The notes under the pieces were generated by a model. The model saw only the letters and a list, made by a program, of their open reading frames with translations. It had not been told where the DNA came from and ran no database searches. From positions 1 to 64,000 of IMG/VR virus record IMGVR_UViG_3300045988_094428: a stretch of DNA of 64,000 bases; one strand, written 5' to 3'. Positions 11,468 through 61,002 of this stretch are shown here, piece by piece; position 1 is the stretch's first letter, and each line of letters starts with the position of its first letter. The translations under genes were made by a program, and so were the position numbers. This DNA comes from a virus.

Positions 11468-12967
11468 ATGGCAAATTTTGCAAATGCAGTTCGTGAATCT
11501 GCACGAATGACCACTACCGCAAATGGAGCAAAGTGCTACAATACCACTGGTAGCAAGATGCTTGACCTGTTCTCTACCGCTGGCGGTATGCGCACTCGAA
11601 TCAATGATGTTCGTGATGCGTTCTCTGCGGCATGGAACGAGAATCCTGAGCTGGCAATTAAGCTGGCTTTCTATTGTCGTGACGTGAGAGGTGGACAGGG
11701 TGAACGTGACGTTGCACGTGAGATGCTTCGCTGGGTCGCAGAATATCATCCTTCCACTATGCGTAAGAATTTGAAGTTCTTGCCTGAGTATGGTCGTTGG
11801 GACGATATTTACGTCTTTGTTGGCACTAAGGTCGAGAATGACGTATGGCAGATGGTTCGTGAGCAGTTCACCGAGGACATCAAGAACGTCAATTCCGGTA
11901 AGTCCTGTTCTCTGATGGCTAAGTGGCTGAAGTCAGTCAATACTTCCTCTAAGAAGTCTGTCGAGTTTGGTCGGTTGACCGCTCGTAAGTTGGGACTGTC
12001 TTATATGCAGTACCAGAAGACTCTGGCAAAACTGCGTAAGTACATTAACGTGACCGAGGTTAATATGTCTGCAAACAAGTGGACTGATATTAACTACGAA
12101 GCTGTCCCTTCTAAGGCTATGACTAACTATCGTAGCGCATTCGCCCGTCACGACCACGAAGGATTTACCGACTATATCAACGCTGTTAAGGCCGGAGAAA
12201 AGACTATTAAATCTAACACTTTGTATCCTTATGACCTTGTACATCAGTACATGGGCGGCGGTGGAATGGTTTCTTATCGCTCCGGTTACTACAACTGCGG
12301 TGGTTTGGCAGATAAGGAAGATGCTGTTGTTGAAGCACAGTGGAAGGCATTGCCCAACTACATTGACGGAAACCATAACGTGATGGTTATGGCAGATACG
12401 TCTGGTTCTATGCGTGGTCAGCCCATCGAATCCGCTCTTGGCCTTGCAATGTATTTTGCAGAGCGTAATAGTGGCCCTTATAAGAATCTGTTTATGACCT
12501 TTAGCTCTCATCCTTGCTATGTCACTCTGGATGAACAGAGTATGCTCGGCAACTTGAAGAAGGCCGCAAAAGCTGACTGGATGGGTTCTACCAACCTTGA
12601 AGCTGCCTTTGCTAAGATTCTCAAGACTGCGACTGACAACCACCTGACTGATGACGAGTTGCCCAAGGCACTTGTTATCATCTCGGATATGCAGTTTAAT
12701 AAGGCGTTGATTCAGGGCGACAACTACTTCGACTCTATGAAGAATATGTATGCCGCACACGGTTATACCCTTCCTCATGTTGTGTTCTGGTGCGTAAATG
12801 CTTGGGCTGGTTCTACTCACCATAATAACTACAACGACTACGTTACTACGTTTAGCGGTAATGCCGCAAGCACTTTCCGTGATGTTCTCGGAACTATCGG
12901 TTATAATGCTTACGAGGCTATGTTGAAGGTTCTGAATGGTGAGCGTTACGCGCAGATTCATGCCTAA
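11468..12967 (+). CDS. vWA-domain protein with a ~300-aa N-terminal region that may be TROVE/DUF2828-like
   Basis: MIDAS motif VMVMADTSGSMRG in the C-terminal half. The N-terminal similarity to the TROVE module of Ro60-like proteins is tentative and recalled, not computed. Confidence 0.4.
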   Translation: MANFANAVRESARMTTTANGAKCYNTTGSKMLDLFSTAGGMRTRINDVRDAFSAAWNENPELAIKLAFYCRDVRGGQGERDVAREMLRWVAEYHPSTMRKNLKFLPEYGRWDDIYVFVGTKVENDVWQMVREQFTEDIKNVNSGKSCSLMAKWLKSVNTSSKKSVEFGRLTARKLGLSYMQYQKTLAKLRKYINVTEVNMSANKWTDINYEAVPSKAMTNYRSAFARHDHEGFTDYINAVKAGEKTIKSNTLYPYDLVHQYMGGGGMVSYRSGYYNCGGLADKEDAVVEAQWKALPNYIDGNHNVMVMADTSGSMRGQPIESALGLAMYFAERNSGPYKNLFMTFSSHPCYVTLDEQSMLGNLKKAAKADWMGSTNLEAAFAKILKTATDNHLTDDELPKALVIISDMQFNKALIQGDNYFDSMKNMYAAHGYTLPHVVFWCVNAWAGSTHHNNYNDYVTTFSGNAASTFRDVLGTIGYNAYEAMLKVLNGERYAQIHA

Positions 12968-13025: not shown

Positions 13026-14558
13026 ATGGTTAATCTTTTCGCATTTATTCCTGTCGTCGCAATTATCGCTGTAATTGCATTGATTGTTATTGTTTTCAAG
13101 TCTTGTTATAAGAAAGCACCGCCCAATAAAGCGATGGTCATTACTGGGCCGTCTGGTAGCAAGACTGTTCACGGTAAGGCTTGCTTTGTCATTCCGCTGA
13201 TTCAGCGTGTTGATTATATGTCTTTGGAGAACATTCAGGTAGACTTTACGTCTCGTGATGAGATTCCTACCAAGGACGCTATCAATATCAATGTTGATGC
13301 GGTTGCTAATATGGCTATTGACACCGAACCGGAGCGCATGGCGGTTGCCGCATCTAAGTTTCTTGGATATTCTATCGCAGACATCCAGACGATTGTCCAG
13401 CCTATTTTGGAAGGTAACATCCGCGAAATTATCTCTCAGACTACTCTGAAGGAGTTGATTCAGGGAGACAAGAAACAGTTTGCTGAAAAGGTTATGGAGA
13501 ATGTTGCCCCTAACCTTGCAGACCTCGGTTTGAAGCTAACTACGTTTAACATCCAGAACTTCAAGGATAGAAATGGCGTGATTGAGAATCTGGGTATTGA
13601 GAATACTGTCCAGATTTCTAAGGACGCCAAGAAAGCACAGGCACAGGCAAAGGCAGAAATTGCTATTGCAGAAGCAGAAAGCGCACGTGCCGCAAATGAA
13701 GCACAGGTCGTAGCTGATGCTGAGATTGCTCAGAAGCAGAACGAACTGGCTATCAAGAAAGCACAGCTGAAGAAGGTTGCGGAAGTCGAACAGGCTCGTG
13801 CCGATGCCGCACGTGGAATTGAGGCTGAGGAACAGCGTAAGGCGCAGGAAATTGCGACCGCAAACGCAAACCTTGCTCGTCAGGAAAAGGAAATTGAACT
13901 GAAGGAGCGCGAGGTTTCCATCAAGGAAAAGTCTCTGGAAGCAGAGGTCAAAAAGACAGCAGAAGCAAAGCGCTACGCTGACCAGCAGGCCGCAGACGCA
14001 CATCTGTATACCGTCCAGCGTCAGTCTGAGGCTTCACTGTTCGACCGTCAGAAGAAGGCAGAAGCAGAGAAGGTTGAAGCTACCCAGAGGGCAGAAGCTG
14101 AAAAGATTACCTCTGAGGCAAAGCGTATTGCCGCAGAAAACGAAGCTGCTGGTATCAAGGCAAAGGGCGTTGCAGAAGCAGAAGCTATTCGTGCAAAGGC
14201 ATTGGCAGAGGCAGAGGGCACTCTGAAAAAGGCAGAAGCTATGCGTGAGTACGGTGATGCTGCAACTATGGACATGAAGTTGGCTGTTGCCAAGGCTTAT
14301 ATTGACAAGTTGCCTGAGATTGCCGCCGCAGTTGCCGCACCTATGGCAAATATTGGCAATATCACCATGTATGGCGAGGGCAACACCGCAAAGCTGACTG
14401 GTGACGTTACCAAGACCATGAAGCAGATTACCGATGGCTTTACTGATGCCACTGGTTTCAATCCTATGATGCTGTTGTCTGGTGTTCTGGGTGGTAAGCT
14501 GGCCGCGTCCAACAACGGTTCTACTGTAAACGTCCATGTTGACGGTGACAATCAGTAA
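13026..14558 (+). CDS. Flotillin-like SPFH/band-7 membrane protein
   Basis: N-terminal TM helix, SPFH-like core, long AEAEAxRA coiled-coil repeats typical of the flotillin/YqiK family. Confidence 0.55.
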   Translation: MVNLFAFIPVVAIIAVIALIVIVFKSCYKKAPPNKAMVITGPSGSKTVHGKACFVIPLIQRVDYMSLENIQVDFTSRDEIPTKDAININVDAVANMAIDTEPERMAVAASKFLGYSIADIQTIVQPILEGNIREIISQTTLKELIQGDKKQFAEKVMENVAPNLADLGLKLTTFNIQNFKDRNGVIENLGIENTVQISKDAKKAQAQAKAEIAIAEAESARAANEAQVVADAEIAQKQNELAIKKAQLKKVAEVEQARADAARGIEAEEQRKAQEIATANANLARQEKEIELKEREVSIKEKSLEAEVKKTAEAKRYADQQAADAHLYTVQRQSEASLFDRQKKAEAEKVEATQRAEAEKITSEAKRIAAENEAAGIKAKGVAEAEAIRAKALAEAEGTLKKAEAMREYGDAATMDMKLAVAKAYIDKLPEIAAAVAAPMANIGNITMYGEGNTAKLTGDVTKTMKQITDGFTDATGFNPMMLLSGVLGGKLAASNNGSTVNVHVDGDNQ

Positions 14559-14578
14559 TCATTCTCTTTTAGATTCTT

Positions 14579-14600
14579 GCAGGGCATACGCCCTGCTTTT
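14579..14600 (+). terminator. Rho-independent terminator
   Basis: GCAGGGC-atac-GCCCTGC followed by TTTTATAT. Confidence 0.8.
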
Positions 14601-14699
14601 ATATGGGGTATTAGTCTAACTGGACAAAACATCACTCTCCTAAAGTGAATTTCTCCGTTCGAGTCGGGGATGCCCCACCAAAATTTTTCTCAAAACCAC

Positions 14700-14728
14700 T
14701 TGACAAATCGCAAAAAGTATGATAGAAT
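14700..14728 (+). promoter_or_regulatory. sigma70-like promoter
   Basis: aaaaccacTTGACAaatcgcaaaaagtaTGaTAGAAT. Confidence 0.55.
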
Positions 14729-15213
14729 ATAGGTGTTCCAAGGGGAATAGAAAGAAAGGTATATTGCATGAAATATGAGACTGTAAAAATGCACGAGTCT
14801 ATTCCTATGACACCGAAACGTCTTTATGAGTGGGCTGTTGCAAACGGTGTTGAAGATTGTCAGATGTATTTTCCGGCAGACGAGCTTGAATGAGATGTTT
14901 ATTTGACTATGGATGATATGTGTAAAGAACATCGTGATTTTGATAAGAACAAGGAAATGGTAGTCAATATTCGTAGGTAATTGTATGATGGTTTTTGTCT
15001 ATGAACTGAAATATGTTGATAAACGCAAATTAGTCCCAGTCACAGAGAGTCCAAAGACGAGGACAATCGCTACGGTGATTAACAAAGTTACTGGAAACGA
15101 TGTTAAGCGTTTGTATAATCGCTTGAAGCGAAGTGGCAATATGCCACAGATGGAATATCTAAAAGATGGAAATTATCGTATTATGTATATGGCACTGCCT
15201 AATGGGTTGAAGT

Positions 15214-16056
15214 TTGACCCATTCTATAAGGACGGGATATATTACAGAGGAAGGAGCGTATTTGACCGTGATGACACTTGATGACAGAATGAAAACTTAT
15301 TATGAGGGTGCATATCGTGTTTATCTGACACGGCGTATGCCTGTCATTATCCGAATCGACTCTCGTGCTGGGCACACCTTTACAAAGAATCTGAAAAAGC
15401 CCTTTGATGTAGTTTTCACTGCAACGATGCAGGATACAATGAAGTATCTGTGTGAAAACATTCAGGGTTGTGTAATTGGTTATACGCAGTCTGACGAGAT
15501 TACTTTGTGCCTTGTTGATTATGACAAGCTGGAAACCGATGCTTGGTTTGGTTATAATCTAAACAAACTGGTAAGCCTCAGTGCATCAATGGCTACGTTG
15601 GCATTTAATAAGTGCTTTGAACGTAATGCCAATAGAACCCTCACTAAGATGGCATTGTCCTCTGGCGTGAATAAGTTTGAAATTGACGCTTACTCTGCTA
15701 CATTGGCAAAGTGTAAAGAAAAGGGTTTGTGTTTCGATTCTCGCGCCTTTAATATCCCGAAGGAAGAGGTGTGCAACTGCTTCTTATGGAGACAGCTTGA
15801 CGCTTCTCGAAACAGTATTCAGGCGGTTGGTCAGGCTAATTTTTCGCATACCGTTCTGAATGGTAAGAATACTTCCGAGATTCAGGATATGTTGATGAAC
15901 GAGAAGGGTATCAACTGGAATAATCTTGCTACAGAATTGAAGCGTGGCTCTTGTTGTGTGCGAGATGAAGGTGGCTGGACTATCGACCATGAGATTCCTA
16001 AGTTCTCTGGCGATGGTCGTGATTACATCGACAAGCTGATTTATATCGGTGAATAA
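15214..16056 (+). CDS. Thg1-like protein (tRNA-His guanylyltransferase / 3'-5' polymerase family). True start probably ATG ~15274.
   Basis: VIIRIDSRAGHTFTK matches the Thg1 RIDGRxFhkF motif; GYTQSDEITLCL matches the Thg1 GQSDE motif. Confidence 0.6.
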   Translation: MTHSIRTGYITEEGAYLTVMTLDDRMKTYYEGAYRVYLTRRMPVIIRIDSRAGHTFTKNLKKPFDVVFTATMQDTMKYLCENIQGCVIGYTQSDEITLCLVDYDKLETDAWFGYNLNKLVSLSASMATLAFNKCFERNANRTLTKMALSSGVNKFEIDAYSATLAKCKEKGLCFDSRAFNIPKEEVCNCFLWRQLDASRNSIQAVGQANFSHTVLNGKNTSEIQDMLMNEKGINWNNLATELKRGSCCVRDEGGWTIDHEIPKFSGDGRDYIDKLIYIGE

Positions 16057-16083
16057 ATTTTAAAAAATATTTTCCAAACCCCT

Positions 16084-16111
16084 TGACAAATGACAAAAAA
16101 TTTGATATAAT
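16084..16111 (+). promoter_or_regulatory. sigma70-like promoter
   Basis: ccaaaccccTTGACAaatgacaaaaaatttgaTATAAT. Confidence 0.55.
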
Positions 16112-16136
16112 AAGGGTGTCAAGAGGAGGTGGTTGA

Positions 16137-16703
16137 ATGGCTACACGATGGTATGATTAGGTCTATCTTCCAAATCATCCGAGGGCAGGAACGAACGGAA
16201 ATGTATTTGTCCATGTAATTGTTGCTGAACAAAAGATTGGAAGATACCTGAAGCCGGAAGAAGTTGTTCATCATATCAACATGGATAAGCATGATAATCG
16301 ACCAGAAAATTTATTGGTTGTCGCTACAAATAGTGACCATGCGGCAATTCATAATGGATGTAACTATGAATTGGATAGTGATGGTGTGGCACATTCAATA
16401 AAGAAAGCGTGCTTTTGTAAGGTATGTGGAAAGATTATTTCTTATGGTTCTGAAATGTGTATTGATTGCTGGCATGAATTTTTGAACAAAAATAGTGCTC
16501 CACATAAAATAGTCGATGGACATTGCATAATTATAACACGTGATGAATTAAAATATAAGATACGCCATAAGTCGTTTGTCGGTATCGGCAAAGAATTTGG
16601 TGTCTGTGACAATACGATAAGAAAATGGTGTAAAAAGTACAACCTCCCTTTTAGAACAAAAGATATAAAGAAATATACAGATGAAGAGTGGGTGAGTGTT
16701 TAA
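16137..16703 (+). CDS. HNH homing endonuclease with an in-frame TAG at codon 8 (16158-16160)
   Basis: MATRWYD-TAG-VYLPNHPRAGTNG...VHHINMDKHDNRPENL is the classic HNH N-terminus and HNH motif, continuous across the TAG. Strong RBS AAGAGGAGG. The C-terminal ~60 aa is shared with the 17348-18100 ORF. Confidence 0.6.
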
Positions 16704-16898
16704 CACCCACTAATATACGTCCTTAGTGTAACGAATAGCACGAAAATCTCCAAAATTTTTAGTAACAGTTTGACTCTGTTAGGACGCGCCAGTTAGACTT
16801 TGTTTGGTTAAGTTAAACATCAATAGCTAGTCTATGTTGGTGAGTTAAAAACCAAGTTCGTGCGCACGAATTTCTTGCGGGAGCAAGGTCGTTTATAT

Positions 16899-16973
16899 GC
16901 GCTTATCGTTCAATGGATAGGACAAAACTCTTCTAAAGTTTTTATGTGGGTTCAATTCCTACTAGGCGTACCA
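16899..16973 (+). tRNA. tRNA-Arg (anticodon TCT), CCA encoded
   Basis: Acceptor GCGCTTA/TAGGCGT, D arm GTTC/GGAC, anticodon arm AAACT-CTTCTAA-AGTTT, T arm GTGGG-TTCAATT-CCTAC. Confidence 0.7.
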
Positions 16974-16974
16974 C

Positions 16975-17060
16975 AGACGCATACAGCAATCCATAAATTT
17001 TGATGGTTTAAAAAGAATGCTTAAAACAATCTTTTACGGTTCGATTCCGTTCTGCGTCTA
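16975..17060 (+). ncRNA. tRNA-like element, identity unresolved
   Basis: Acceptor-like pairing AGACGCA/TGCGTCT; T8A9; T arm ACGG-TTCGATT-CCGT. No convincing D/anticodon arm by hand; 85 nt. Confidence 0.3.
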
Positions 17061-17137
17061 ATTTTTAGTTATTCTTTATCTTTTTCTGAATCTGATAGAT
17101 ACGAACAGCAACACTTTCTTTGTTCGCGCCACTAATT

Positions 17138-17212
17138 GCGGATATAGTTTAGATGGTTAGAACGCCACACCGAAATGTGGAGACGTGGGTTCGAGTCCCA
17201 CTTATAGTCGTG
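17138..17212 (+). ncRNA. tRNA-like element, probably a pseudo-tRNA
   Basis: Canonical D arm (GTTT-agatggtta-GAAC) and T arm (GTGGG-TTCGAGT-CCCAC). The anticodon stem CCACA/TGTGG encloses only 6 nt. The acceptor stem does not pair. Confidence 0.3.
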
Positions 17213-17220
17213 TCTAATAT

Positions 17221-17293
17221 GCCCGGTTAGTCAAGTTGGCTAAGACGAGTGATTCTCAATCACTAGGCGGCAGTTCAATCCTGCCACCGGGTA
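17221..17293 (+). tRNA. tRNA-Glu (anticodon CTC), no encoded CCA
   Basis: Acceptor GCCCGGT/ACCGGGT, anticodon arm AGTGA-TTCTCAA-TCACT, T arm GGCAG-TTCAATC-CTGCC. Confidence 0.6.
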
Positions 17294-17298
17294 CTTTA

Positions 17299-17330
17299 TG
17301 GTCGAGTAGCTCAGTTGGTTAGAGCAGTAG
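17299..17330 (+). ncRNA. Truncated tRNA 5' fragment (acceptor + D arm), directly upstream of the PD-(D/E)XK endonuclease gene
   Basis: GGTCGAG-TA-GCTC-AGTTGGTTA-GAGC-A-GTAGA... but no matching 3' half (no CTCGACC) within 1 kb. Confidence 0.4.
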
Positions 17331-17347
17331 ATAAATGGGGTATGAAT

Positions 17348-18100
17348 ATGGTAAATTCAAAGATGAAAGGCAATATTGCAGAGTCGCGTATTTTATATGA
17401 ATTTGTTTAGAGAGGAATACCAGTTTCAATACCTTACGGCGATAATGAACGCTATGATATGATAGCGGAATTTAATGGAAAGCTGAATAAGATACAGATA
17501 AAGTTCTGCAATCAACAAATAGTTGATGGTTCGATAAGCTGTCCATGTTCTAATATAGTAAATCCATTAACAAAAAGTAAGCATAGAGAATTATATGTTA
17601 ATGATGTTGATTATATGGCATTTTACATATATGTATGGGATGTTGCTGTTATAATTCCAACAAGTTACATAGGGAATAGGATTCAGATAAAGATTAGAAA
17701 AGAACGTGCAAAGAACAATCAAACTACAGCTTCTACATTTGTTGATGACTTTACTTTTGATAAAATTGTTGGAGCAGATGTTCGTAATGTGATAGAAGAA
17801 CAACAAAATGTATATGAAAAAGCATATAATAGATGTGTTGATTGCGGATGTGCCATATCGGATAGGGCTGTGAGATGTTTAAGGTGTAGAAACTTGAAGC
17901 AATATGAAGAAACGGCAAATCCGAATATGATAGATAGAGACACGCTTAAATCCATGATTAGAAATATGCCATTTAAGCATATCGCATCTATATGTGGAGT
18001 TTCAGATAACTGTATTAGAAATTGGTGTAAAAGATATAATCTTCCATATCGTACATCTGACATTAAGAAATATACAGATGACGAGTGGAGTGATGTATAA
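17348..18100 (+). CDS. PD-(D/E)XK (Hjc/archaeal-resolvase-like) endonuclease with C-terminal domain shared with the HNH protein; in-frame TAG at 17408-17410
   Basis: GNIAESRILYEFV-TAG-RGIPVSIPYGDNERYDMIAEFNGKLNKIQIK matches the E..V...L...G..V..P..D...YD.I.E..GK...IQ.K nuclease core across the TAG. C-terminus ...NCIRNWCKRYNLPYRTSDIKKYTDDEW matches the 16137-16703 ORF. Confidence 0.5.
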
Positions 18101-18239
18101 TTTTTAGCTAATTACCAAAACAATATCCCACTGACATAATAATACCCATTTTTTCGGTTTGGCTAACAGCGCATAGCTATAAAAGTCTAGGATTATTGGA
18201 TAGGCTAACAATGACTGCTGGAAAGACAGCAATTTATAT

Positions 18240-18316
18240 GCGGCAGTAGTTCAACTGGATAGAACAATCGGCTACGAACCGATAGGTTGCGAGTTCAAGT
18301 CTTGTCTGCCGTACCA
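18240..18316 (+). tRNA. tRNA-Arg (anticodon ACG), CCA encoded
   Basis: Acceptor GCGGCAG/CTGCCGT, anticodon arm ATCGG-CTACGAA-CCGAT. Confidence 0.7.
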
Positions 18317-18438
18317 GATAAATGAGTCTCAAATTACGCTGGACAAAGGGGAGCCTTTTATGGGTGACTGTTATGACAGTGACCCTGATTATCGGTGACG
18401 ATACTAACTCATGAGAGTGCGTAAGCCGACATTTATAT

Positions 18439-18524
18439 GTGCGTGTATCCGAATTGGCATAGGAGCTGCTTTGAGATGGCAGTGTCGAAAGACATTGTGG
18501 GTTCAAGTCCCACCATGCACACCA
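18439..18524 (+). tRNA. tRNA-Leu (anticodon GAG), class II with GAAA-capped variable arm, CCA encoded
   Basis: Acceptor GTGCGTG/CATGCAC, anticodon arm CTGCT-TTGAGAT-GGCAG, variable arm TGTC-GAAA-GACA, T arm GTGGG-TTCAAGT-CCCAC. Confidence 0.65.
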
Positions 18525-18527
18525 AAA

Positions 18528-18649
18528 TACAGGATGGTTTCAATGGTAAAACATCGCCAAAATAAGAATGTGTCTATGTAGACATAAGCCGCAATTATTT
18601 TTTCTTAAAAGCCAAGACGAAGATGTTGGTTCGACCCCAACTCCTGTAT
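18528..18649 (+). ncRNA. 122-nt tRNA-like RNA 'A'. Perfect acceptor, D and T arms, but ~50 extra nt (with a TGTCTA-TG-TAGACA hairpin) in place of a normal anticodon arm.
   Basis: Acceptor TACAGGA/TCCTGTA (7/7), D arm GTTT-caatggta-AAAC, T arm GTTGG-TTCGACC-CCAAC. Internal segment cannot be folded into a 5-7-5 anticodon arm by hand. Confidence 0.4.
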
Positions 18650-18656
18650 TTATTAT

Positions 18657-18732
18657 GCGAGATTAACTCAACTGGAAGAGTGCTACCCTTACAAGGTAGA
18701 AGTTACAAGTTCGAGTCTTGTATTTCGCACCA
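18657..18732 (+). tRNA. tRNA-Val (anticodon TAC), CCA encoded
   Basis: Acceptor GCGAGAT/ATTTCGC, anticodon arm CTACC-CTTACAA-GGTAG, T arm ACAAG-TTCGAGT-CTTGT. Confidence 0.7.
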
Positions 18733-18818
18733 TACGACAGTTTATAAGCTAAACAAGTCCTGCCGTGGACAAAACAAAAACTTAATTTGCGGTTGAGTGA
18801 CCTTAAACTCACCATTAT

Positions 18819-18935
18819 GGCTGTGTAGCTCAATAGGCTAGAGCGCGTAAAACCTATCTATTTTAGATAGTAACAGCTACACATTTTTCCATTATAAGGA
18901 CGAGGTTTATGGTTCGAGTCCATACGCAGCCACCA
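18819..18935 (+). ncRNA. 117-nt tRNA-like RNA 'B'. Same architecture as A, with a ~50-nt insert containing a CTATCTA-tttt-AGATAG hairpin.
   Basis: Acceptor GGCTGTG/CGCAGCC, D arm GCTC-aataggcta-GAGC, T arm TATGG-TTCGAGT-CCATA, CCA encoded. Confidence 0.4.
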
Positions 18936-19327
18936 AAAATCTAAAAAAGAAGGGAAATGAATCCGATGCAGTAGATTGATAATAATAATCCTATGGTTTT
19001 CTTTCAAATGTTGGGTGAAGTTGCCGGTGATAACATCATGAGCAAGATTTCCCGACTAAAGATTAGTGAAGAAAATGGAATTGTTACTTTATATCTAAGA
19101 GATGAACGTGAACCGTTTAACGATAGTGAACTTAGACAGCTAAGATACATCTTAGAAAGATGGTATGATATAATTTCTTTTAGGCGTGAAGATAGGCTTA
19201 CTATGTTAGATATGAAGGTAAGAAAATAACCCTCCTTTATTTTTATATATAAAAAGACACATCCAGCAAACTTTTATTAAATTTTGAGTAGCCTTATGAT
19301 TCAATTTTTAATGTGTCTTTTAGATTT

Positions 19328-19415
19328 GCCAGTGTAGTTCAGTTGGTAGAACGCGGGTTTTGTAATCCCGATGCCGAAAGGGTTCTCGCAGGTTCGAGTC
19401 CTGTCACTGGCTCCA
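19328..19415 (+). tRNA. Class II (long variable arm) tRNA with atypical anticodon region CGGGT-TTTGTAA-TCCCG (anticodon TGT by canonical numbering; contains GTA)
   Basis: Acceptor GCCAGTG/CACTGGC perfect, D arm GTTC/GAAC, 17-nt variable arm, T arm GCAGG-TTCGAGT-CCTGT, CCA. Anticodon stem has a U-U at its base, so the loop is effectively 9 nt. Confidence 0.45.
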
Positions 19416-19416
19416 T

Positions 19417-19492
19417 GCCACTTTAATTCAGTAGATAGAATGATGCGTTCGTATCGCATACGTCGTAGGTTTGATTCCTACAGGTGGCTCCA
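19417..19492 (+). tRNA. tRNA-Thr (anticodon CGT), CCA encoded
   Basis: Acceptor GCCACTT/AGGTGGC, D arm ATTC/GAAT, anticodon arm ATGCG-TTCGTAT-CGCAT, T arm GTAGG-TTTGATT-CCTAC. Confidence 0.7.
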
Positions 19493-19630
19493 ATCGCACC
19501 TATGCTGTGGTAGAATAGGTATAGGCAAGTATTTTAACTACCGTGTCCATAGAGTTAATGGACTTGGGAGGTACTGACAAGACAGAAGAGCAAGTACCAT
19601 GCACGTGGGCGGGTATTCGTGCTTTCATTT

Positions 19631-19718
19631 GCGCTCGTAGCTAAGTTGGTATAGCACCGGACTTTTAATCCGGGGTGGATTATTCCTATCGTGGGTTCAA
19701 GTCCCACCGGGCGCACCA
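19631..19718 (+). tRNA. Class II-architecture tRNA with anticodon TTT (Lys-reading anticodon on a long-variable-arm scaffold), CCA encoded
   Basis: Acceptor GCGCTCG/CGGGCGC, D arm GCTA/TAGC, anticodon arm CCGGA-CTTTTAA-TCCGG (perfect), 17-nt variable arm with GGA/TCC stem, T arm GTGGG-TTCAAGT-CCCAC. Confidence 0.5.
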
Positions 19719-19866
19719 CGCGGTAAGTAGTTTTCGAGTTGCGACTATTGTAGCTGGTATTCGTAAAAAATATAGTAAATGCGTGATATGACAGTATGCC
19801 GCGTTTGTGTCAAGGAACAAGCACATTGCGGATAAACCGATGACTGCTGGAAAGACAGCGTTTTAT

Positions 19867-19943
19867 GTTTCCATAGCTCAGTTGGTTAGAGCGCAATCCT
19901 GATAAGATTGAGGTCGAATGTTCAATTCATTCTGGAAACACCA
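19867..19943 (+). tRNA. tRNA-Ile (anticodon GAT), CCA encoded
   Basis: Acceptor GTTTCCA/TGGAAAC, D arm GCTC/GAGC, anticodon arm CAATC-CTGATAA-GATTG, T arm GAATG-TTCAATT-CATTC. Confidence 0.75.
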
Positions 19944-19955
19944 CTTATTTATTAT

Positions 19956-20046
19956 GTGGTAGTACCCAAGAGGTTGAAGGGGCTTGCTTGGAAAGCAAGT
20001 AGGCGGCGTAAGCCGTGCAGGGGTTCAAATCCCTTCTACCACGCCA
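19956..20046 (+). tRNA. tRNA-Ser (anticodon GGA), class II, CCA encoded
   Basis: Acceptor GTGGTAG/CTACCAC, anticodon arm CTTGC-TTGGAAA-GCAAG, 19-nt variable arm GGCGGC-gtaa-GCCG, T arm AGGGG-TTCAAAT-CCCTT. Confidence 0.7.
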
Positions 20047-20173
20047 CGACCGTAAAGATGAACAAAATGGAGCATACGGTGTTACAAAACCGTCTCGGAG
20101 TGATTGTATCACAAGGGGATTTAACGGAATATATGCTCGATGCGTGGTTCGCAAAACCTAAATTGCAAATATG

Positions 20174-20247
20174 CGTCATGTGCCAGACGGCTAGGCGAGA
20201 GACTGCAAATCTCTTTTAGATTGGTTCGACTCCAATATGACGCTCCA
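20174..20247 (+). tRNA. tRNA-Cys (anticodon GCA), CCA encoded
   Basis: Acceptor GCGTCAT/ATGACGC perfect, anticodon arm AGAGA-CTGCAAA-TCTCT, T arm ATTGG-TTCGACT-CCAAT. Confidence 0.7.
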
Positions 20248-20249
20248 GT

Positions 20250-20540
20250 AAATGAGAATCAAAGCGGACTGGTAAAGGGATGCCTTTAGGAGCAGACCGA
20301 ACTGTTGTAATAGAGGTACACTATTACACTTTGCGGTGCTCTGATTAGTGGTTTTGATGCCAACAATGGTGTTCGCGCCACCCCATCATTTATCCTCAAG
20401 CTGGCTTGAGAAACGATACTCGGAAGGGTATCACGCCCCACCGTGGGAGAAAGCGGCAGTCCGGGTCGGGACTAGAGAATACGACCACGCGATATTTGGT
20501 GGATGGGAACGAGTGAGTACGATTCGTTCCCAATTTTTAT
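20250..20540 (+). ncRNA. Candidate structured non-coding RNA (~290 nt) ending in an intrinsic terminator
   Basis: Dense local hairpins (GTAATAG/CTATTAC, CAAGC/GCTTG, CCCAC/GTGGG, CCGGG/CCCGG), no credible ORF. Terminator GGGAACGA-...-TCGTTCCC + AATTTTTATT at 20505-20540. Confidence 0.3.
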
Positions 20541-20564
20541 TATTTATGAATAGGAGATGGTTGC

Positions 20565-21095
20565 ATGAAGAAACTGCTAGGAGCTATCATTGCTTTGCTT
20601 ACAACATTTGTGATAATTTGCGCTGTGGCAGTTCCGTCAAAAGCGGCAGATTTTAGTGACAAGTTTGAATTATATGAATCGTGGAATAACAATCTAAAAG
20701 TATATACAAGAGAAGTGAGTGAGGAACTTGATGTTCCGTATTCTGCGTTAGTTGCTATTATCTATCACGAGTCAAGATTTAAGAACGATGTTGGCACAAG
20801 CTATATTGGCCTAATGCAAGTTGGATGTACGTCAGATATTTTGAATTTTCTTTCAAATAATGGACTAAAAACATCTAAGAAAGGTTTGTATAACCCAGAG
20901 ACAAACATTAGAGCTGGTGCATTGATTCTTAGATACGCAATGGATAAAGCCACAAATATGGAAGATGCGTTCTATATTTATACTTGCGGCGAGGGTGCTG
21001 TAAAAAAGCGAAAGGCGAACGGTCAGAAGAAAAATAAAGCTACTATTGAAATTACAGAGCTTTATTACGAATATTCTGAATACTTTGCTGAATAG
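20565..21095 (+). CDS. Lytic transglycosylase (SLT domain) with signal peptide. The TAG at 21093-21095 is followed by 60 stop-free, protein-like codons to TGA 21276-21278, so a read-through product 20565-21278 is possible.
   Basis: IIYHESRFKNDVGTSYIGLMQV (catalytic E-S, GLMQ motif); N-terminal hydrophobic leader. Extension GKSDYRQFLLDELNGVQSELDETNGLLQ... is coiled-coil-like. Confidence 0.55.
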   Translation: MKKLLGAIIALLTTFVIICAVAVPSKAADFSDKFELYESWNNNLKVYTREVSEELDVPYSALVAIIYHESRFKNDVGTSYIGLMQVGCTSDILNFLSNNGLKTSKKGLYNPETNIRAGALILRYAMDKATNMEDAFYIYTCGEGAVKKRKANGQKKNKATIEITELYYEYSEYFAE

Positions 21096-21293
21096 GGTAA
21101 ATCTGATTATCGACAGTTCCTATTAGATGAACTAAATGGGGTTCAGTCAGAACTCGACGAGACGAACGGTTTGCTTCAGTCTTGTGAAGTGTATCAGTCC
21201 GACTATTACAACCAGCAGTTGTTGTTTATAGAGCAAAAGATAGACTTCATAAATTCTGAATTAAAAAATTTAGAATGACCTCTTGACTTCTTG

Positions 21294-21347
21294 AATCCGG
21301 GATGGTATACTACTACTAGGTAGTAATCATCCCGGATTTTTCTTTAA
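21294..21347 (+). terminator. Hairpin terminator overlapping a promoter-like TTGACT/TATACT pair
   Basis: ATCCGGGATG...CATCCCGGAT followed by TTTTTC. Confidence 0.5.
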
Positions 21348-21365
21348 GAAATTTTCCAAAACCCC

Positions 21366-21394
21366 TTGACTTTGGCCGGTTTCTATGCTATAAT
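21366..21394 (+). promoter_or_regulatory. sigma70-like promoter
   Basis: ccaaaaccccTTGACTttggccggtttctaTGcTATAAT. Confidence 0.6.
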
Positions 21395-21816
21395 ATAGAC
21401 AGTCGAAAGGCAATAAAACAAAAACAAAAGAACTAAAGGAGAAAAAATTATGAAGCTGAAGGTTTATGAGAATCACAATCGCGTTATCGCTCTGGGTCAC
21501 GAGTTTGGCAAGCGTATCAAGGTGATGGCCGTGTGTCACGCAGAGGATACCTTTGACGCGGACTTCGGTAAGAAGCTGGCAGAGTTCAAGTACAAGATTG
21601 CCAAGAAGGATGCTAAGATTGCAGAGCACAAGCGTTACATTAAGGCACTGAAGGCCGCCATTGCCGAATGTGAGCATGAGATTGCGGCACAGGAGGCCGC
21701 AATCGTTCTCGTGACCGAGAACCGCGATAAGGTTGTTGCAGATAAGGACGCATTTATTGCGACCAAGTATGTACACAACGAGGGGTAATTACCCCTTATA
21801 CATAACAGGTGTTTAG

Positions 21817-22506
21817 ATGAGATATTTAGGTGGCAAGAGCAGAATCGCAAAAGATATTTCTGATTATATCAATTCAGTGATAGGAAATCGTGATTTTATC
21901 CGGTAACTGCCTTCCGGCCTGAACATCTCGCCACATGGCGATTAGATATGGATGCGCGTCATTAAGAATTTTGCGATTCGCATTGACACGCGACTCAATA
22001 GAACAGCTCCCGCAAAACAAAGATATAAAATCACGAAGTCAACATACGATTACGTGAAAGCGCACAAAGATGAAGACCCCGGATTGACTGGATATGTTGG
22101 TTTTGCGTGTAGTTATTCTGGTAAGTGGTTTGGCGGTCTTGCAAGAAATAAGCGCGGCGAAGATTTTTGTGCTGGTGCAAGTCACAGTATTTATCGTGAC
22201 CTAAACGGTTTAAAGAATGCAGAGTTCTTGTGTGGTGATTATCGAGATGTATCAATCCCGAATGGTTCGGTCGTGTATTTAGACCCACCATATAAAGGAA
22301 CTACTGGATATTCTACTGGTGATTTTGACCATGAAGCGTTTTGGGAGTATGTCAGAGAGCTTTCAAAAAGGTGCACTGTCCTTGTAAGCGAAGAGACTGC
22401 TCCTAATGATTTTGCTTGTGTTTGGTCTAAGCAGATTGCAAGACAGGTAGATGTGCGGCAAGGTCGAGTCTACAAAACTGAAAAATTATTTTCAAAAACC
22501 ACTTGA
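21817..22506 (+). pseudogene. Dam-like N6-adenine DNA methyltransferase, disrupted: N-terminal MRYLGGKSRIAKDI... stops at TAA 21904, motif-I region replaced by a short segment with TAA and TAG; C-terminal DPPY core intact
   Basis: Paralogous to the intact MTase at 38648-39403 (MKYMGSKARIAKDI..., FDIPY). VYLDPPYKG present. FxGG motif I cannot be found in any frame between 21904 and 21952. Confidence 0.4.
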
Positions 22507-51568: not shown

Positions 51569-53035
51569 ATGAGTTTTAAAACGCAACAACTGCCCGGTAC
51601 AATACCTGTGGGTGGCTTTACTACACAAAAGTTGAGCGATGTTAAACATGGCATACCAGAGAAGTTTGAAGAGCGTTGTCTTGCAAGAGCTGTAAAAGAT
51701 GGCCGTTTCAACACGGCTATTGGCTTGGTCGAAGCGTTGTCTAATGCAGGATACGAGGCATACCTTGTCGGAGGCTGTGTTCGTGATATGCTTCGTTGTA
51801 AGACTCCAAAAGATTACGACATCACTACATCTGCAACACCAGAGCAGATTGAATCTGTATTCAATAATGAGCAGATTATCGAAACTGGCATCAAACACGG
51901 TACTGTTACGGTTATGATTGATGGCGTAGGTTATGAAATTACCACGTTCCGCATTGATGGTGACTACTCTGATGGTCGGCATCCAGACAGTGTAAAGTTT
52001 GCTAAAACCATTGAGGAAGATTTAGGCAGACGTGATTTTACTATTAACGCTATGGCGTATAATAAAGAACGCGGCTTTGTTGACCCTTATAATGGATTTT
52101 GGCATTTGCACTGCGAGACGATTCGTTGTGTCGGCAATCCTGTTCTTAGATTTCAAGAAGATGGTTTGCGTATTCTTCGTGCTATGCGTTTCGCTTGCGT
52201 ATTTGGTTATAATATTGACGAAGATACGGCTTATGGTATGCGCGTCTGTAAAAAGAAGTTGGAATGTGTATCTAAAGAGAGAATCCGCGCTGAACTTGAT
52301 AAGATGATTTCAACATATAAGTTCGGTGATATTATGATGAAGTTCAGCGATATCCTTGTAGAAATTATCCCAGAACTTGATAATCTAACAGGAAATATCT
52401 CATATACAGAGAAGCCGAGTCGCTTTGACCTTTATACAGACATTGCTCATGAATTTATCGAGGGTGAAAATCACCGCGATAATGTTACTTCCTATGCGTT
52501 ACTGTTCCGCAATCTCACAATGTTTGAAAGCGAAATTCGCAAGCATTTGACTTTGGAAGAAATTGCAACTGCGGCGAGTGCTGTTGCACACAACGTCATG
52601 AAAGACCTGAAGTTCGATAACACTACTATGGAGTCTGTATGTCGTATTATCAAACAGTCTTTTGAACCAGTTCCGATGAACAAGTATAAGATGCGTGTTC
52701 TTATCAATAAACTTGGTAAAGAAGATGCCGAGCGTATGCTCGACTTGATGTTGATGCAGAGCAATATTCCTGCTTGCTACTCATATAGTTGGGAGCAGTG
52801 TTATGATTCCATGAGTATTTTCTATGATGTTAAAGATGAAAACACGTTCACTGTTAAAGACCTTGACATTAACGGATATGACCTTATGGAAATTGGCTTT
52901 AGAGGTATTTACATCCGCAAGACTTTAAATCACCTTTTGCATCTATATTTCTTAGATTCAATCGAGAATAAACATGATGCCTTGTATGCAAAAGCATCCG
53001 AGTTATTTAATTTAAGTGGTGGCAGTATTTTATGA
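51569..53035 (+). CDS. cca: CCA-adding enzyme / tRNA nucleotidyltransferase
   Basis: Head-domain motif EAYLVGGCVRDMLRCKTPKDYDITT (GGxVRD...DxD) of class II CCA/poly(A) polymerases. Confidence 0.7.
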   Translation: MSFKTQQLPGTIPVGGFTTQKLSDVKHGIPEKFEERCLARAVKDGRFNTAIGLVEALSNAGYEAYLVGGCVRDMLRCKTPKDYDITTSATPEQIESVFNNEQIIETGIKHGTVTVMIDGVGYEITTFRIDGDYSDGRHPDSVKFAKTIEEDLGRRDFTINAMAYNKERGFVDPYNGFWHLHCETIRCVGNPVLRFQEDGLRILRAMRFACVFGYNIDEDTAYGMRVCKKKLECVSKERIRAELDKMISTYKFGDIMMKFSDILVEIIPELDNLTGNISYTEKPSRFDLYTDIAHEFIEGENHRDNVTSYALLFRNLTMFESEIRKHLTLEEIATAASAVAHNVMKDLKFDNTTMESVCRIIKQSFEPVPMNKYKMRVLINKLGKEDAERMLDLMLMQSNIPACYSYSWEQCYDSMSIFYDVKDENTFTVKDLDINGYDLMEIGFRGIYIRKTLNHLLHLYFLDSIENKHDALYAKASELFNLSGGSIL

Positions 53036-58052: not shown

Positions 58053-60512
58053 TTAATAATTAAATTCTCTGTCTAAGCCTGCACCAAAACGAATGATATT
58101 TATTTTTTTTGATATTGGTCTTATTACAACAACATCCCACGCTTGTTCTGTTGCATCACCTTCTGTTCTTGACGGAGAAACAAGTCCATAAGTTGTATCA
58201 TAACCAGTAATAGCTCTGATTGAATCAGAATTAACATCTGTTTGTTCAAATTTTCCACACGTTGAAGCAATAGATAACCATGGTTCTGTAAAAGCATAGT
58301 CGCAATGACTATGACCGAATAACTGAATAAATTTACCACCACTTGAAATGAACGTAGAAATAGCATTGTTAATTGCTTCAGACCTTGCTTCTGACGGAAT
58401 CTTGTTGCTAAAATTCTGATTCTTTTGTGTAGACATATGCTCACAAAGAACCACAGTCTTATCTGTGTTCAGCGCTGTATCTATAAACCATGTCTTTGTA
58501 TCTTCTGAGATTACATAAGCATTCAAATAATTTGTATTGATAAATACTACCCTTATGTTCAACTCTTTATAATCAACATAGAAATCAGTTCCATTAGTGG
58601 CTTTGTTTACGATTGCATTTTTAGGGGTCGCAGACATAAATGCTCTGTAAGTCTGCCCTATATCGAATTTAGGACTTGGGTCATAATTCGTATCATGGTT
58701 CCCAACAGCAAACAAGTACGGGATTCCGATACTGTTGAAAGCTGATAACATATAGTCTGCTTGTGATAAAGATGTTTCAATATTACTACTTCCATTTATG
58801 TTATCACCAAGATTTGCAATGAAATCGCAATGAATTTTCTTAGCAAAATACTTTATATTTTTAATGGTTTCGTCAAAATTCTGAAATACTATTGAAGTAG
58901 GTGCATAATGAATATCTGTGATTTTCGGAAACACAAGACAAGGCTCTGTCATGCAATTTCTAACAGAAGCGATAGTTTCGTTCATTTCCGAAACAAATTT
59001 TTCTGATAAATCGTTTTCCAGCTTAGTTATTCTTTTTTCGTGGTCTGACAGCACGGAATCATATACCTTAACTGTTATGCCAAGTTCTTCAAGTGTGATA
59101 GTCGAAGATGTATCTGTTTTTGAGCAAGCGATGCAAATATAAGAATCTACAGATGGAATCCAATCCATAGGTTCTGTTTCCCATCCACCCCGCAAAACAT
59201 TCGTGTACTTTCCATCAGCAAGTGTCCATGCACTTCTTGCAAACTGTTGCCCTAAAATAGTTTCAATATGAACCTTTGTATTTGCTTTTATGAATAGCAA
59301 TTCTGAAAAAGATATTCTTGTCGTTGAACTAACTTTAATTGGTTTTGCTCCACCGGTTTGTCTTGACCATGATACTCTTGCCCAATCTGTAAAAAGCCTC
59401 GACCCATCTTCAAGAAGCATTTTTAACACATCTACATCGTTTCTTAGCGCAGATGTTTTTTCTACAGTGTCAGCAACAGTACCTTGTAAATGCGCATCCT
59501 TTGCCCAATTTGCTGAAATCTTTCTGTTACTATTTACATTAAGTGCAACATAATAACAATCTCTCTTGTTGTTAGTAACTGTTCTTTTATTACCATATGT
59601 TGAATCAAGTGCAAAGTAGTCGATGTATTTTTTGTCTGCATCATATAGTTGGTATTGGTTAGTCGGAAGTGCTTCGCCATCATCTGAATAGATAGTAAAT
59701 ATAGTTCCTTTTGGAATCTCAAATGGTACAAGCTCCGTGCTATTAATTGTACTTTTGTAAAATCCAACAATACCAGAAATTTTAGTTATATCTTCTTTTA
59801 GCTGACTTTCCGCATCGGTAGCTCTATCAATTTCACCCTACAAGTCCTTTCTAATAGAAGTAACTTTAGACGATTCTGCTTTACCAGCCAATTTATCTCC
59901 GACAGTTTTTGCATCAGCGGCATAACCAGAAATTGTAAGTGTTGTGTCTGTCTTTAACGATGCGGCACTTTTAGCGGCAGCATCAGCAGCCGCTTGAGCC
60001 GCTTTTGATGCTGCAAGTGTATCATTATAATATTTGGCAGCGATAGCATTAAAACTATCAATAGCTGCTTGAAGTGCATTTTCATCTTCGATAGGTTCGC
60101 CAGTATCAAGTAATCCTTCCTCAACCTAAAAAGTAGCTGGTTTTGTATGAAGAATATATTGTGATACGTTAGTCATATCATTTGTATCATATATTGATAC
60201 GTCATAAGTTACAGTGCCTTTAGCACTTGTGACATTAGAATCAAGAACCCAGTCGAACAGAACGAATTGCTCGTTACCTTCTGTAATAACCTCTCTGCTA
60301 TTACAGAAAAACTGGTCATAACGATTCAGAGAATTGACATATCTGACAGTAAGAATCTTATCGGTAATATCAATACCATCAATCACTGATGGAATCTTAA
60401 AGGTAATATATCTTGAATCATTATCATTTACAACAGCCAATTCTTCTGTCGCGCTTGGAACGATTGTTCTATTTACAATTTCAAAAATATAAGTTCCGTT
60501 CAAGCTATTCAA
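58053..60512 (-). CDS. Tail-fibre-like protein (~819 codons) with a C-terminal metallophosphoesterase domain, containing two in-frame TAG codons (plus 60126-60128 and 59838-59840)
   Basis: A single continuous frame. ...HTKPATF-TAG-VEEGLLDTGEPIEDENALQAAIDSFNAIAAKYYNDTLAASKAAQAAADAAAK... and ...SIRKDL-TAG-GEIDRATDAESQLKEDI... The downstream segments have no start codon of their own. C-terminal calcineurin-like motifs GDNINGSS and FAVGNHDTNYD. RBS AGGAGG + TTG start at 60512. Confidence 0.6.
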
Positions 60513-61002
60513 CCTCCTAAATTAAAAATAAGGGTGTAGCATTAAGCTACACCCAACTTATTAAATGTACTTATCGTCAGTAATATACTCGTACTCTTCT
60601 GGAGTAATCCAGCCCTTTTTGGTTACATTATAGACCATCTTTTTAGTCCAGAAACCAGAATCGTAGTAATACTCAGCTTTCTTTCCGTGTGCGGACAGTT
60701 CCATATCGTCCATATATTGTACTTCCATATCTTCCATATCTTCCATACCGCCCATACTAGCGGTTTTCTCTTCTTCGACAGGTAGTTCAATATCACTCAT
60801 AACAGCAATATACTCAATCAAAGATTGTTGATTGCTAATCTGAGCATTGCGATGTTCGACCATCTTCTCCTCGTGAGGATTCATAATCGCCTTTTGAAAA
60901 ATCATAATTCTACCTCCATAAATCATTGTAGAATTTATTCATTCGCTATATCAATCTATATGAGTTGCCATGCTCCGCATGAGCAACCCAACAGCTATAG
61001 CA

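Follow-up and report, generated by a model that had tools for sequence, protein, structure and literature searches.

Thr(UGU) and Lys(UUU) tRNAs with an extra variable-loop hairpin in the tRNA array of an uncultured gut phage

Why should a phage encode tRNAs that combine Thr and Lys anticodons with a long variable region of the kind found in tRNA-Leu, tRNA-Ser and tRNA-Tyr? This question is raised by the tRNA array at 16899-20247 of a stretch of 64,000 nucleotides (nt), positions 1 to 64,000 of the IMG/VR virus record IMGVR_UViG_3300045988_094428, here called the window. The two genes concerned are tRNA-Thr(TGT) (19328-19415, + strand) and tRNA-Lys(TTT) (19631-19718, + strand), designated Thr88 and Lys88. 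A first-pass annotation had singled out both as unusual, and ARAGORN indeed reports them as Thr-TGT and Lys-TTT genes of 88 nt with 17-nt variable regions. The mechanism proposed there, which was built on class II scaffolds and missing CCA ends, proved largely wrong. We favour the explanation that the genes encode Thr and Lys tRNAs of cognate identity and that their added arm would protect them from tRNA-cleaving nucleases, and assign this explanation as a whole a probability of about 0.5. The window was compared with fetched loci of sister or other phage contigs, which are labelled L002, L117, L119 and so on. Sister contigs of ~150 kb are present in IMG/VR and in human-gut metagenomes, and no close relative of the window DNA was found among GenBank phages.

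Structure and identity of Thr88 and Lys88

The Rfam tRNA model fits Thr88 with 61.3 bits and Lys88 with 67.9 bits. The extra variable hairpin of Thr88 is located at 19371-19387 (ATGCCGAAAGGGTTCTC), and a U31.U39 mismatch adjoins the anticodon loop, in agreement with the TTTGTAA loop and mismatched stem base read in the first pass. In Lys88 the extra hairpin (19674-19690, GGTGGATTATTCCTATC) has the stem GGA/TCC and the loop TTAT. The class II architecture that had been ascribed to both genes holds for the 17-nt variable region; it does not hold for the D stem, which has the 4 bp of class I, nor for the variable loop, which forms merely a short 3-bp hairpin. The acceptor and T stems are in the 7/5 configuration. 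Canonical class II tRNAs (bacterial Leu, Ser and Tyr) share with Thr88 and Lys88 a variable region of more than 10 nt that forms a stem-loop, and many long-arm Thr and Asn genes of other phages even resemble class II in their D arm, with a 3-bp stem and a similar loop. In contrast to class II, Thr88 and Lys88 have the anticodons and the acceptor identity of Thr and Lys as well as 4-bp D stems, and the extra stems of the long-arm genes comprise 3-5 bp.

The identity elements point in the same direction for Thr88. The set recognised by threonyl-tRNA synthetase (ThrRS) consists of G1-C72, C2-G71, (G4-C69), G5-C68, G35 and U36 (PMC9976931). With G1-C72, C2-G71, A4-U69, G5-C68, G35 and U36, Thr88 has five of these six bacterial elements, and we judge the set to be present; G1-C72 and C2-G71 are invariant in the long Thr genes of every lineage. 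Where seryl-tRNA synthetase (SerRS) uses G73, G2-C71 and C11-G24, Thr88 instead has U73, C2-G71 and T11-A24, and C2-G71 is listed as a SerRS antideterminant (PMC9976931). Lys88 has A73, C2-G71 and C11-G24 at these positions and is thus no SerRS-type scaffold either. The long variable region is the sole SerRS feature that Thr88 and Lys88 have in common.

The elements used by lysyl-tRNA synthetase (LysRS), A73 and U34, U35 and U36, are present in Lys88 and in all long Lys genes. Its acceptor stem, D arm and flanks are those of the ordinary 77-nt Lys allele of sister phages, and L117 contains essentially the same gene, but with a 5-nt variable loop. The 5' half also matches annotated tRNA-Lys genes of cultured phages. 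The T arm, however, is identical to that of the phage's own tRNA-Leu(GAG), so that Lys88 looks chimeric. Substrates of leucyl-tRNA synthetase (LeuRS) are marked by A73, a particular tertiary arrangement of D loop and T loop, and a 3-bp D stem. Thr88 has U73, and Lys88 combines A73 and the Leu-identical T arm with the class I 4-bp D stem.

These features bear on the possibility that the genes are Leu-, Ser- or Tyr-type class II scaffolds. SerRS and LeuRS ignore the anticodon, and such tRNAs would insert Ser or Leu at ACA and AAA codons, or suppressor and recoding tRNAs could arise from them. There are precedents for long variable arms with anticodons outside Leu, Ser and Tyr. The nematode nev-tRNAs of Hamashima et al. 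reportedly have Leu-type bodies and are charged with Leu. Both these and the allo-tRNAs (Mukai et al. 2017, PMC5389517) combine the arm with non-cognate anticodons; in the allo-tRNAs the acceptor/T branch is 8/4 or 9/3 and the discriminator is of the Ser type. Thr88 and Lys88 are 7/5 tRNAs, and they differ from both groups in carrying cognate identity sets. A73 and the T arm of Lys88 fit a Leu-type origin, as do Leu-like D arms in long Lys-UUU genes of L100 and L096 and, with regard to suppression, the CUA tRNA that lies beside the long Lys gene in other phage clades. Against this, the ordinary Lys gene is the source of the acceptor, D arm and anticodon stem of Lys88, and Thr88 keeps the ThrRS set and lacks the SerRS elements. 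A derivation of the extra arms from the Ser, Leu or Tyr genes of the phage itself was considered and rejected, as no such motif occurs in those genes. Mistranslation of AAA and ACA, codons that are likely common at 39% GC, would presumably harm the phage's own proteins. We regard class II scaffolds as an improbable explanation; what was taken for suppressor raw material appears to be class I tRNAs that keep the Thr and Lys identity sets. As judged from these sequences, Thr88 and Lys88 are very probably genuine decoders of ACA (Thr) and AAA (Lys), with an arm that is real and selected.

Two genes from other loci are better candidates for Leu/Lys ambiguity than Lys88. L100:7158-7245 and a gene in L096 (86 nt, 'Stop-tta' in ARAGORN) are long Lys-UUU genes with a Leu-like D arm, T arm and A73. 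The CUA tRNA of another clade (L083:6627-6707, also in L084, L085, L093 and L094) is 81 nt in length, has an anticodon stem of eight positions with two mismatches, and stands directly upstream of a long-arm Lys-UUU gene.

Distribution of the extra arm and its possible role

A pattern scan of IMG/VR for Thr-UGU genes with a long variable region yielded 22 contigs, with ARAGORN sizes of 83-88 nt. When eight distinct Thr-UGU sequences were aligned, each of the three base pairs in the extra stem proved to vary in both partners, with 95.8% of cells paired. For the structure as a whole, 96% of cells pair, compared with at most 49% when the partners are slid by 1-3 columns. The U31.U39 mismatch is conserved in six of the eight long-Thr lineages. 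Long Lys-UUU genes were found in several lineages with the stems GGA/TCC, GCC/GGC, GGGA/TCCC, GGG/CCC and GTG/CAC and mostly with GAAA loops. Among the unique tRNAs of the fetched loci, the arm is present in Thr-UGU (12/19), Lys-UUU (6/20), Asn-GUU (4/12) and Ile-UAU (2/3); the Thr-UGU and Lys-UUU frequencies are biased, the long forms having been gathered by sequence patterns. It occurs once each in Gln-UUG, His-GUG and Pro-UGG, and in none of 155 unique sequences of other class I species (Fisher P = 4e-7). An association of long arms with U39 was also considered. It is real as a trend in Asn (4/4 long versus 3/8 short); in Thr and Lys it was forced by the search patterns, and a general rule was rejected.

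In 185,579 cellular genomes, one per species, the Thr pattern identified two true genes, both on short tRNA-array contigs that look viral. No long-arm counterpart was detected in 50,697 GenBank phage records, nor was a description of such tRNAs found in the literature searched, the coverage of which was partial and no proof of novelty. The long-arm Thr and Lys tRNAs thus appear to be a phage-specific class, undescribed in that literature. As the alignments show, uncultured phages have conserved this arm, with covariation of its stem, in tRNAs for a small set of anticodons.

Such conservation argues against a further view, by which the array evolves fast and its odd members, the long-arm genes among them, are pseudogenes in decay or neutral insertions. 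The array does contain dead or degenerate genes (a truncated tRNA-Phe gene and element P, which lacks an acceptor stem; see below), and the tRNA-like elements A, B and P diverge at about the rate of the spacers. The extra stems, however, covary in distant lineages, and Thr88 is conserved in 11 of 12 sister arrays, invariant but for one compensatory change in the anticodon stem in L120. Decay therefore seems a very remote explanation, the more so in view of the compensatory changes that keep the stems of A and B and of an insert in element C that is conserved beyond most tRNAs.

The Lys position is more variable. The Lys88 allele was found only in the window, L004 and L005; other sisters carry alleles of 76-78 nt, and at least five Lys alleles exist among 13 sister arrays. 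One of them has U39 changed to A and in this resembles a T5 resistance mutation. This allelic diversity, the interruption of one Lys gene by an endonuclease gene and the ordinary 74-nt Thr gene of one sister phage give the locus an arms-race-like character.

What could the arm be good for? The pocket of the variable loop is flanked by the anticodon stem and the D arm; it is the one site at which, as class II tRNAs show, EF-Tu and the ribosome tolerate an extra helix. From this position we infer a steric shield. A mini-hairpin of roughly 12 nt, added in the variable loop of class I Thr and Lys bodies, would hinder host tRNases that dock on the anticodon stem and on the hinge between D arm and variable region. 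PARIS AriB and P2 OLD, both OLD-family Toprim enzymes, serve as models. AriB depletes or cleaves Lys-UUU and Thr-UGU most, followed by Asn-GUU and Thr-CGU, with traces of His-GUG and Pro-UGG. Its cut in the anticodon stem falls at 40/41, and in a model the second monomer contacts the D loop (PMC12409363). For P2 OLD, which cuts the anticodon stem twice, Thr-UGU is the preferred target, ahead of Lys-UUU and Asn-GUU; the resistance of phage Thr tRNAs is due in part to shortening of that stem (PMC12445682). The AriB list includes five of the seven long-arm species, an overlap with P = 0.001, or 0.013 without the two seed species, in a post hoc test.

According to this proposal, the phage replacement tRNAs would survive while host Thr-UGU and Lys-UUU are destroyed. 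The U31.U39 mismatch, which shortens the anticodon stem of Thr88 as in the OLD-resistant phage Thr tRNAs, would act in the same way, and the locus would evolve through allele swapping aided by homing endonucleases. The nuclease-resistant phage tRNAs known from AriB and OLD are of the same species and are likewise phage copies of host tRNAs that defence nucleases destroy. Their setting is also alike, a tRNA array with homing endonucleases and repair enzymes. They differ in that their resistance is due to point substitutions near the cleavage site or in the D loop, whereas Thr88 and Lys88 retain U39-C40 and would instead rely on a whole hairpin added in the variable loop.

The arm could instead serve the phage's own machinery or decoding, as a handle by which the Thg1-like enzyme, the CCA-adding enzyme, the RNA ligase, the Ro-like RNA-binding protein or modification enzymes distinguish phage tRNAs from those of the host, as a stabiliser of an A/U-rich anticodon arm or as a means to change wobble. 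Genes for tRNA repair and an RNA-binding protein adjoin the array, the arm is concentrated in tRNAs with weak, U-rich anticodons, and 4-bp anticodon stems were reported to alter decoding (PMC13092985). A general phage tag is at odds with the presence of the arm in 2 of 14 functional tRNAs of the array, and long and short Lys alleles swap freely among sisters that share the same enzymes. Furthermore, we know of no enzyme that recognises such an arm on class I tRNAs. We consider a role in the phage's own machinery unlikely, albeit less so than class II scaffolds.

Nuclease evasion is our preferred role for the arm, at slightly below even odds. Several points weigh against it. The overlap of long-arm and AriB species was tested only after the fact, and the pattern-based sampling biases the frequencies of the long Thr-UGU and Lys-UUU forms. 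The target lists of AriB and OLD are borrowed, as the host is probably not Escherichia coli. Thr-CGU and Val-UAC are nuclease targets that have no long arm here, and Ile-UAU and Gln-UUG carry the arm yet are not main AriB targets. The extra stem of Thr88 is weak (2-3 pairs), and most sister phages do well with a short Lys allele. Finally, Lys88 may be open to charging by LeuRS, given its A73 and Leu-type T arm.

Elements A, B, C and P and the endonuclease genes

Besides its regular tRNA genes, the array contains four stretches that the first pass had left unresolved and in which it suspected a hidden suppressor. All four hold tRNA-like elements, termed A, B, C and P, and none of them conceals a CUA anticodon.

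Element C (18819-18935, +) has an encoded CCA and a 40-nt insert in the 5' strand of its anticodon stem. Without the insert it becomes a perfect 77-nt tRNA-Ile(TAT). The Rfam tRNA model fits the element with 44.6 bits, with 51 nt in place of 11. In an exhaustive search this was the unique single-deletion solution, and 0.4% of shuffled sequences reach one. The intron mode of ARAGORN had proposed a Glu-TTC gene with a 34-nt intron for 18819-18935; this was rejected because of mismatched stems, as the search gives Ile-TAT. The insert (18849-18888, +) interrupts the stem at position 29/30. It is closed by AAAA/TTTT runs and contains a 7-bp hairpin (CTATCTA/TAGATAG) as well as a 9-nt complement (AGCTACACA) to tRNA positions 4-12.

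In L119, 39 of the 40 nt of the insert are identical, compared with 68-83% in nearby spacers and 85% in exon 2. At neutral rates, one change or fewer would be expected with P = 0.005 or less, which indicates that the insert is under strong constraint. The L119 element itself has the loop CTGTCAC, C38, G73 and the conserved G10, i.e. the complete bacterial identity set of Asp (Asp-GUC), and a compensatory change in the T stem. Two details fit less well: the L119 element must either lose 41 nt instead of 40 or form a loop of 8 nt, and position 33 is C in L120. Judging by these comparisons, element C seems to be functional in two identities, Ile and Asp, with the insert in place. Scans for the insert outside this clade returned only the same five contigs, and it matches no Rfam family. 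As intron-less alleles were not found and only these five contigs contain it, the idea of a mobile element was rejected. Short inserts are not confined to element C, as an unrelated phage shows. The tRNA-like gene at L096:523-635 (-) has 43 nt inserted between the D arm and the anticodon stem, and after their removal a perfect anticodon arm with the loop TCCATAA (CAT, C33) is obtained.

Group I introns and archaeal bulge-helix-bulge introns likewise interrupt tRNA genes in the anticodon arm. Group I introns comprise about 200 nt or more, with a group I core in the anticodon loop and both exons preserved; the insert of element C, in contrast, has 40 nt, belongs to no Rfam family and lies within the stem at 29/30. 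The combined proposal, that the extra arm is armour against anticodon-stem tRNases, different from the point mutations of T5 and T4, and that the insert of element C, having outlasted a change of identity between Ile and Asp in one direction or the other, implies a tRNA processing or splicing route of neither the group I nor the archaeal type, is offered tentatively, with less confidence than nuclease evasion by itself.

Element A (16975-17061, +) starts 1 nt after the CCA of tRNA-Arg(TCT). It is tRNA-like, with neither CCA nor variable loop, and yields no Rfam match. A 7-bp acceptor stem, a degenerate D-like hairpin, a 4-bp T stem and a canonical T loop can be folded. The anticodon-like stem has nine positions with one A.A mismatch and a 7-nt loop, CTTAAAA. 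Although 20 positions are changed or deleted in L119, the cloverleaf persists there, with compensatory changes in two T-stem pairs (ACGG/CCGT to GTGG/CCAC). Relatives differ in the loop triplet (TAA, TAG, TCA or AAA).

Element B (18528-18650, +) starts 3 nt after the CCA of tRNA-Leu. It has U1-A72, normal acceptor, D and T arms and no CCA. Its 5-bp anticodon stem encloses, in place of the 7-nt loop, a structured domain of 57 nt (18559-18615) with a helix, AAGAA/TTCTT, and a hairpin, GTGTCT/AGACAT. Compensatory changes were observed in the acceptor (G-C, U.G and U-A), in the T stem (U-A to C-G) and in the anticodon stem (TCGCC/GGCGA to TCACC/GGTGA), and the inner helix is AACAA/TTGTT in L119. 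An exhaustive search identified no single deletion that restores a canonical loop. The Leu-TAA gene with a 45-nt intron that ARAGORN proposes in intron mode for 18527-18650 was rejected on this ground and because of mismatched stems. Pairing of the insert with the element's own D-arm strand, predicted by RNAalifold, was also rejected, as the L119 sequence gives no support. B was likewise rejected as a Gln-type suppressor; its similarity to Gln is no better than that to Trp, Gly, Glu or Asp, and CUA cannot be placed in a loop.

From the folds and their covariation, A and B are predicted to be structured tRNA-like RNAs without a usable anticodon. Their free ends are at the acceptor stem, unlike those of a YrlA-type mimic, which ends in a Ro-binding stem and has a loop closing its acceptor-like stem; the YrlA (Y RNA-like) model gave only a sub-threshold chance match over tRNA-Glu and the tRNA-Phe fragment (16.9 bits versus a gathering score of 69). 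T4 encodes the small stable RNAs RNAC and RNAD in its tRNA region (PMC3014915). A and B recall them as small structured RNAs of a phage tRNA cluster that start 1-3 nt after tRNA ends, a likeness of position and concept only.

Element P (17138-17212, +; Rfam 41.1 bits) has well-formed D, anticodon and T arms, with CCGAAA (6 nt) as its loop, but acceptor pairs 2-4 are broken. Alleles in relatives have the loops CCAAAA, CTACAAA or CTTAAAA, all without an acceptor stem, and the anticodon stem covaries (CCGCA/TGCGG versus CCGTA/TACGG). P is probably a pseudogene or a non-chargeable tRNA-like RNA. Editing of its 5' end by a Thg1-type enzyme was rejected; the mismatched positions, which are 2-4 in the window and 1, 4, 5 and 6 in the alleles of relatives, do not follow the 1-3 pattern.

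A 5' fragment of tRNA-Phe(GAA) (17300-17331, +) comprises the acceptor strand, D arm and 5' strand of the anticodon stem. The gene is intact (77 nt) in L002, L003 and L005. In the window, 17332-18101 replaces its last 45 nt, and the 3' half was found nowhere in the 64 kb. The replacing segment contains a PD-(D/E)XK homing-endonuclease-like gene (17342-18100, +; PF11645, E = 2.8e-21) with a C-terminal helix-turn-helix (HTH) and an in-frame TAG at 17408; some sister phages have this gene and others lack it. We take the enzyme to be of the I-Ssp6803I type. A group I intron in tRNA-Phe as host of this gene was rejected, as the 3' half is absent, the sisters show replacement and no Rfam intron matches. 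Unlike intron-borne endonucleases, the gene is free-standing and destroys the Phe gene. In L116 (11183-11944) a homologue, also a PD-(D/E)XK gene, lies inside the Lys tRNA gene, of which only the first 13 nt are left. These endonucleases target tRNA genes and probably drive allele swapping in the array. A second homing-endonuclease-type open reading frame (ORF) near the array, HNH-like (16281-16703), shares a 97-nt 3' segment with the PD-(D/E)XK gene (16595-16691 and 17992-18088, 72% identical), which encodes the same C-terminal HTH module.

The array, its neighbourhood and the reading of TAG

The interval is a single tRNA operon of a roughly 150-kb human-gut phage. The 13 tRNA genes that ARAGORN identified in the window span 14605-20247 and are all encoded on the + strand. 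The Rfam tRNA model supports these genes and adds 17138-17209 (41.1 bits) and 18819-18932 (44.6 bits), which correspond to P and C. Within 16899-20247, ARAGORN reports 11 genes, which carry the anticodons listed in the first pass, one fewer than the "at least 12 clean tRNAs" counted there. No other Rfam family was found at E<=1 in 14000-22000 except for chance sub-threshold matches on the reverse strand of three tRNA genes, and across the whole window no non-tRNA family scored above its gathering score.

Upstream of the flagged interval are canonical genes for tRNA-Arg(CCT) (14605-14680, +) and tRNA-Trp(CCA) (16717-16791, +), both with encoded CCA. The interval itself begins with tRNA-Arg(TCT) (16899-16973, +), which is canonical with encoded CCA, followed by tRNA-Glu(CTC) (17221-17294, +), the sole canonical tRNA here without encoded CCA. 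The genes for tRNA-Arg(ACG) (18240-18316, +), tRNA-Val(TAC) (18657-18732, +), tRNA-Ile(GAT) (19867-19943, +) and tRNA-Cys(GCA) (20173-20247, +) are also canonical. True class II genes are present as tRNA-Leu(GAG) (18439-18524, +; A73) and tRNA-Ser(GGA) (19956-20046, +; G73). The canonical 76-nt tRNA-Thr(CGT) (19417-19492, +) shares the acceptor ends GCCA...TGGC and U73 with Thr88. The supposed absence of encoded CCA from several tRNAs is not borne out by these genes. Twelve of the 13 ARAGORN tRNAs and element C end in CCA, and the exceptions are Glu-CTC, A, B and P. A homologue of the CCA-adding enzyme is indeed encoded at 51569-53035 (Pfam and PHROGs matches), but the link drawn between it and missing CCA ends falls, because most of the tRNAs do encode CCA.

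A promoter-like site upstream of the array (16083-16111, +) consists of TTGACA, a 17-nt spacer and a TG-extended TATAAT, a 12/12 match to the consensus. A paralogous copy (14700-14728) lies inside a 57-nt direct repeat (14680-14736 and 16063-16119). On the 3' side of the array, a terminator-like hairpin is followed by a T run (20504-20532, +). A 27-nt repeat (ATGACTGCTGGAAAGACAGC...TTTAT; 18211-18237 and 19840-19866) forms a small hairpin just 5' of tRNA-Arg(ACG) and tRNA-Ile(GAT), and a TTAT(A)T leader precedes most tRNAs of the array; both are possibly processing or promoter signals. A small ORF of ~78 codons (18993-19229, +) is situated between element C and Thr88, in a stretch that is 83% identical in L119.

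Several genes for RNA metabolism surround the array. An RNA ligase (13-2211, +; PHA02142 oligonucleotide-binding (OB) fold and RNA_ligase domain) is split by an intein with a LAGLIDADG endonuclease. A Thg1-like 3'-5' nucleotidyltransferase for repair or maturation of tRNA 5' ends (15214-16056, +) has Pfam and PHROGs matches. Just upstream of the array are genes for a DUF2828+VWA protein (11468-12967, +; PHROG "RNA-binding protein") and an SPFH/flotillin-like protein (13026-14558, +). The RNA ligase, the Thg1-like enzyme, the DUF2828+VWA protein and the CCA-adding enzyme form a tRNA repair set, which places the array in a tRNA maturation and repair neighbourhood. The DUF2828+VWA protein is possibly kin to Ro/TROVE proteins, and both it and the SPFH/flotillin-like protein could be partners of RNAs A and B. 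A search of the DUF2828/VWA sequence against solved structures (PDB) returned nothing informative.

In-frame TAG codons, which the first pass had noticed, are absent from most + strand (early) genes. The tail-fibre-like gene at 58053-60521 (-) contains two, at 60128 and 59840. When two sister contigs are aligned, the first site is TAG or Gln and the second is Gln in both, and this alignment indicates that the phage reads TAG as Gln in late genes. An amber suppressor (CUA, 7-nt loop, U33 and purine 37) was found in none of the 17 tRNA-like elements of the window, with or without modelled removal of inserts, in keeping with the earlier impression that an obvious CUA suppressor is missing. A Gln-inserting CUA tRNA must therefore exist outside the 64-kb window, an option already named in the first pass. 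The tail-fibre-like genes are adjoined by a reverse transcriptase gene with a YMDD-type motif (about 60950-61980, -), which looks like that of a diversity-generating retroelement.

Cleavage of tRNA is now recognised as a major antiphage strategy, with phage tRNAs as the antidote. The route to resistance known so far is point mutation near the cut site; if our reading is correct, the extra arm would be a second, structural route. It would also explain why gene finders make "class II" calls for odd tRNA genes of gut phages, and it would provide natural 7/5 scaffolds that tolerate a variable-arm hairpin while identity remains based on the anticodon, which would be useful in tRNA engineering. We regard the finding as real and as more interesting than the hunt for a hidden suppressor. 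RNAs A and B, which have no anticodon, and the conserved insert of element C suggest that phage tRNA operons harbour undescribed RNA biology.

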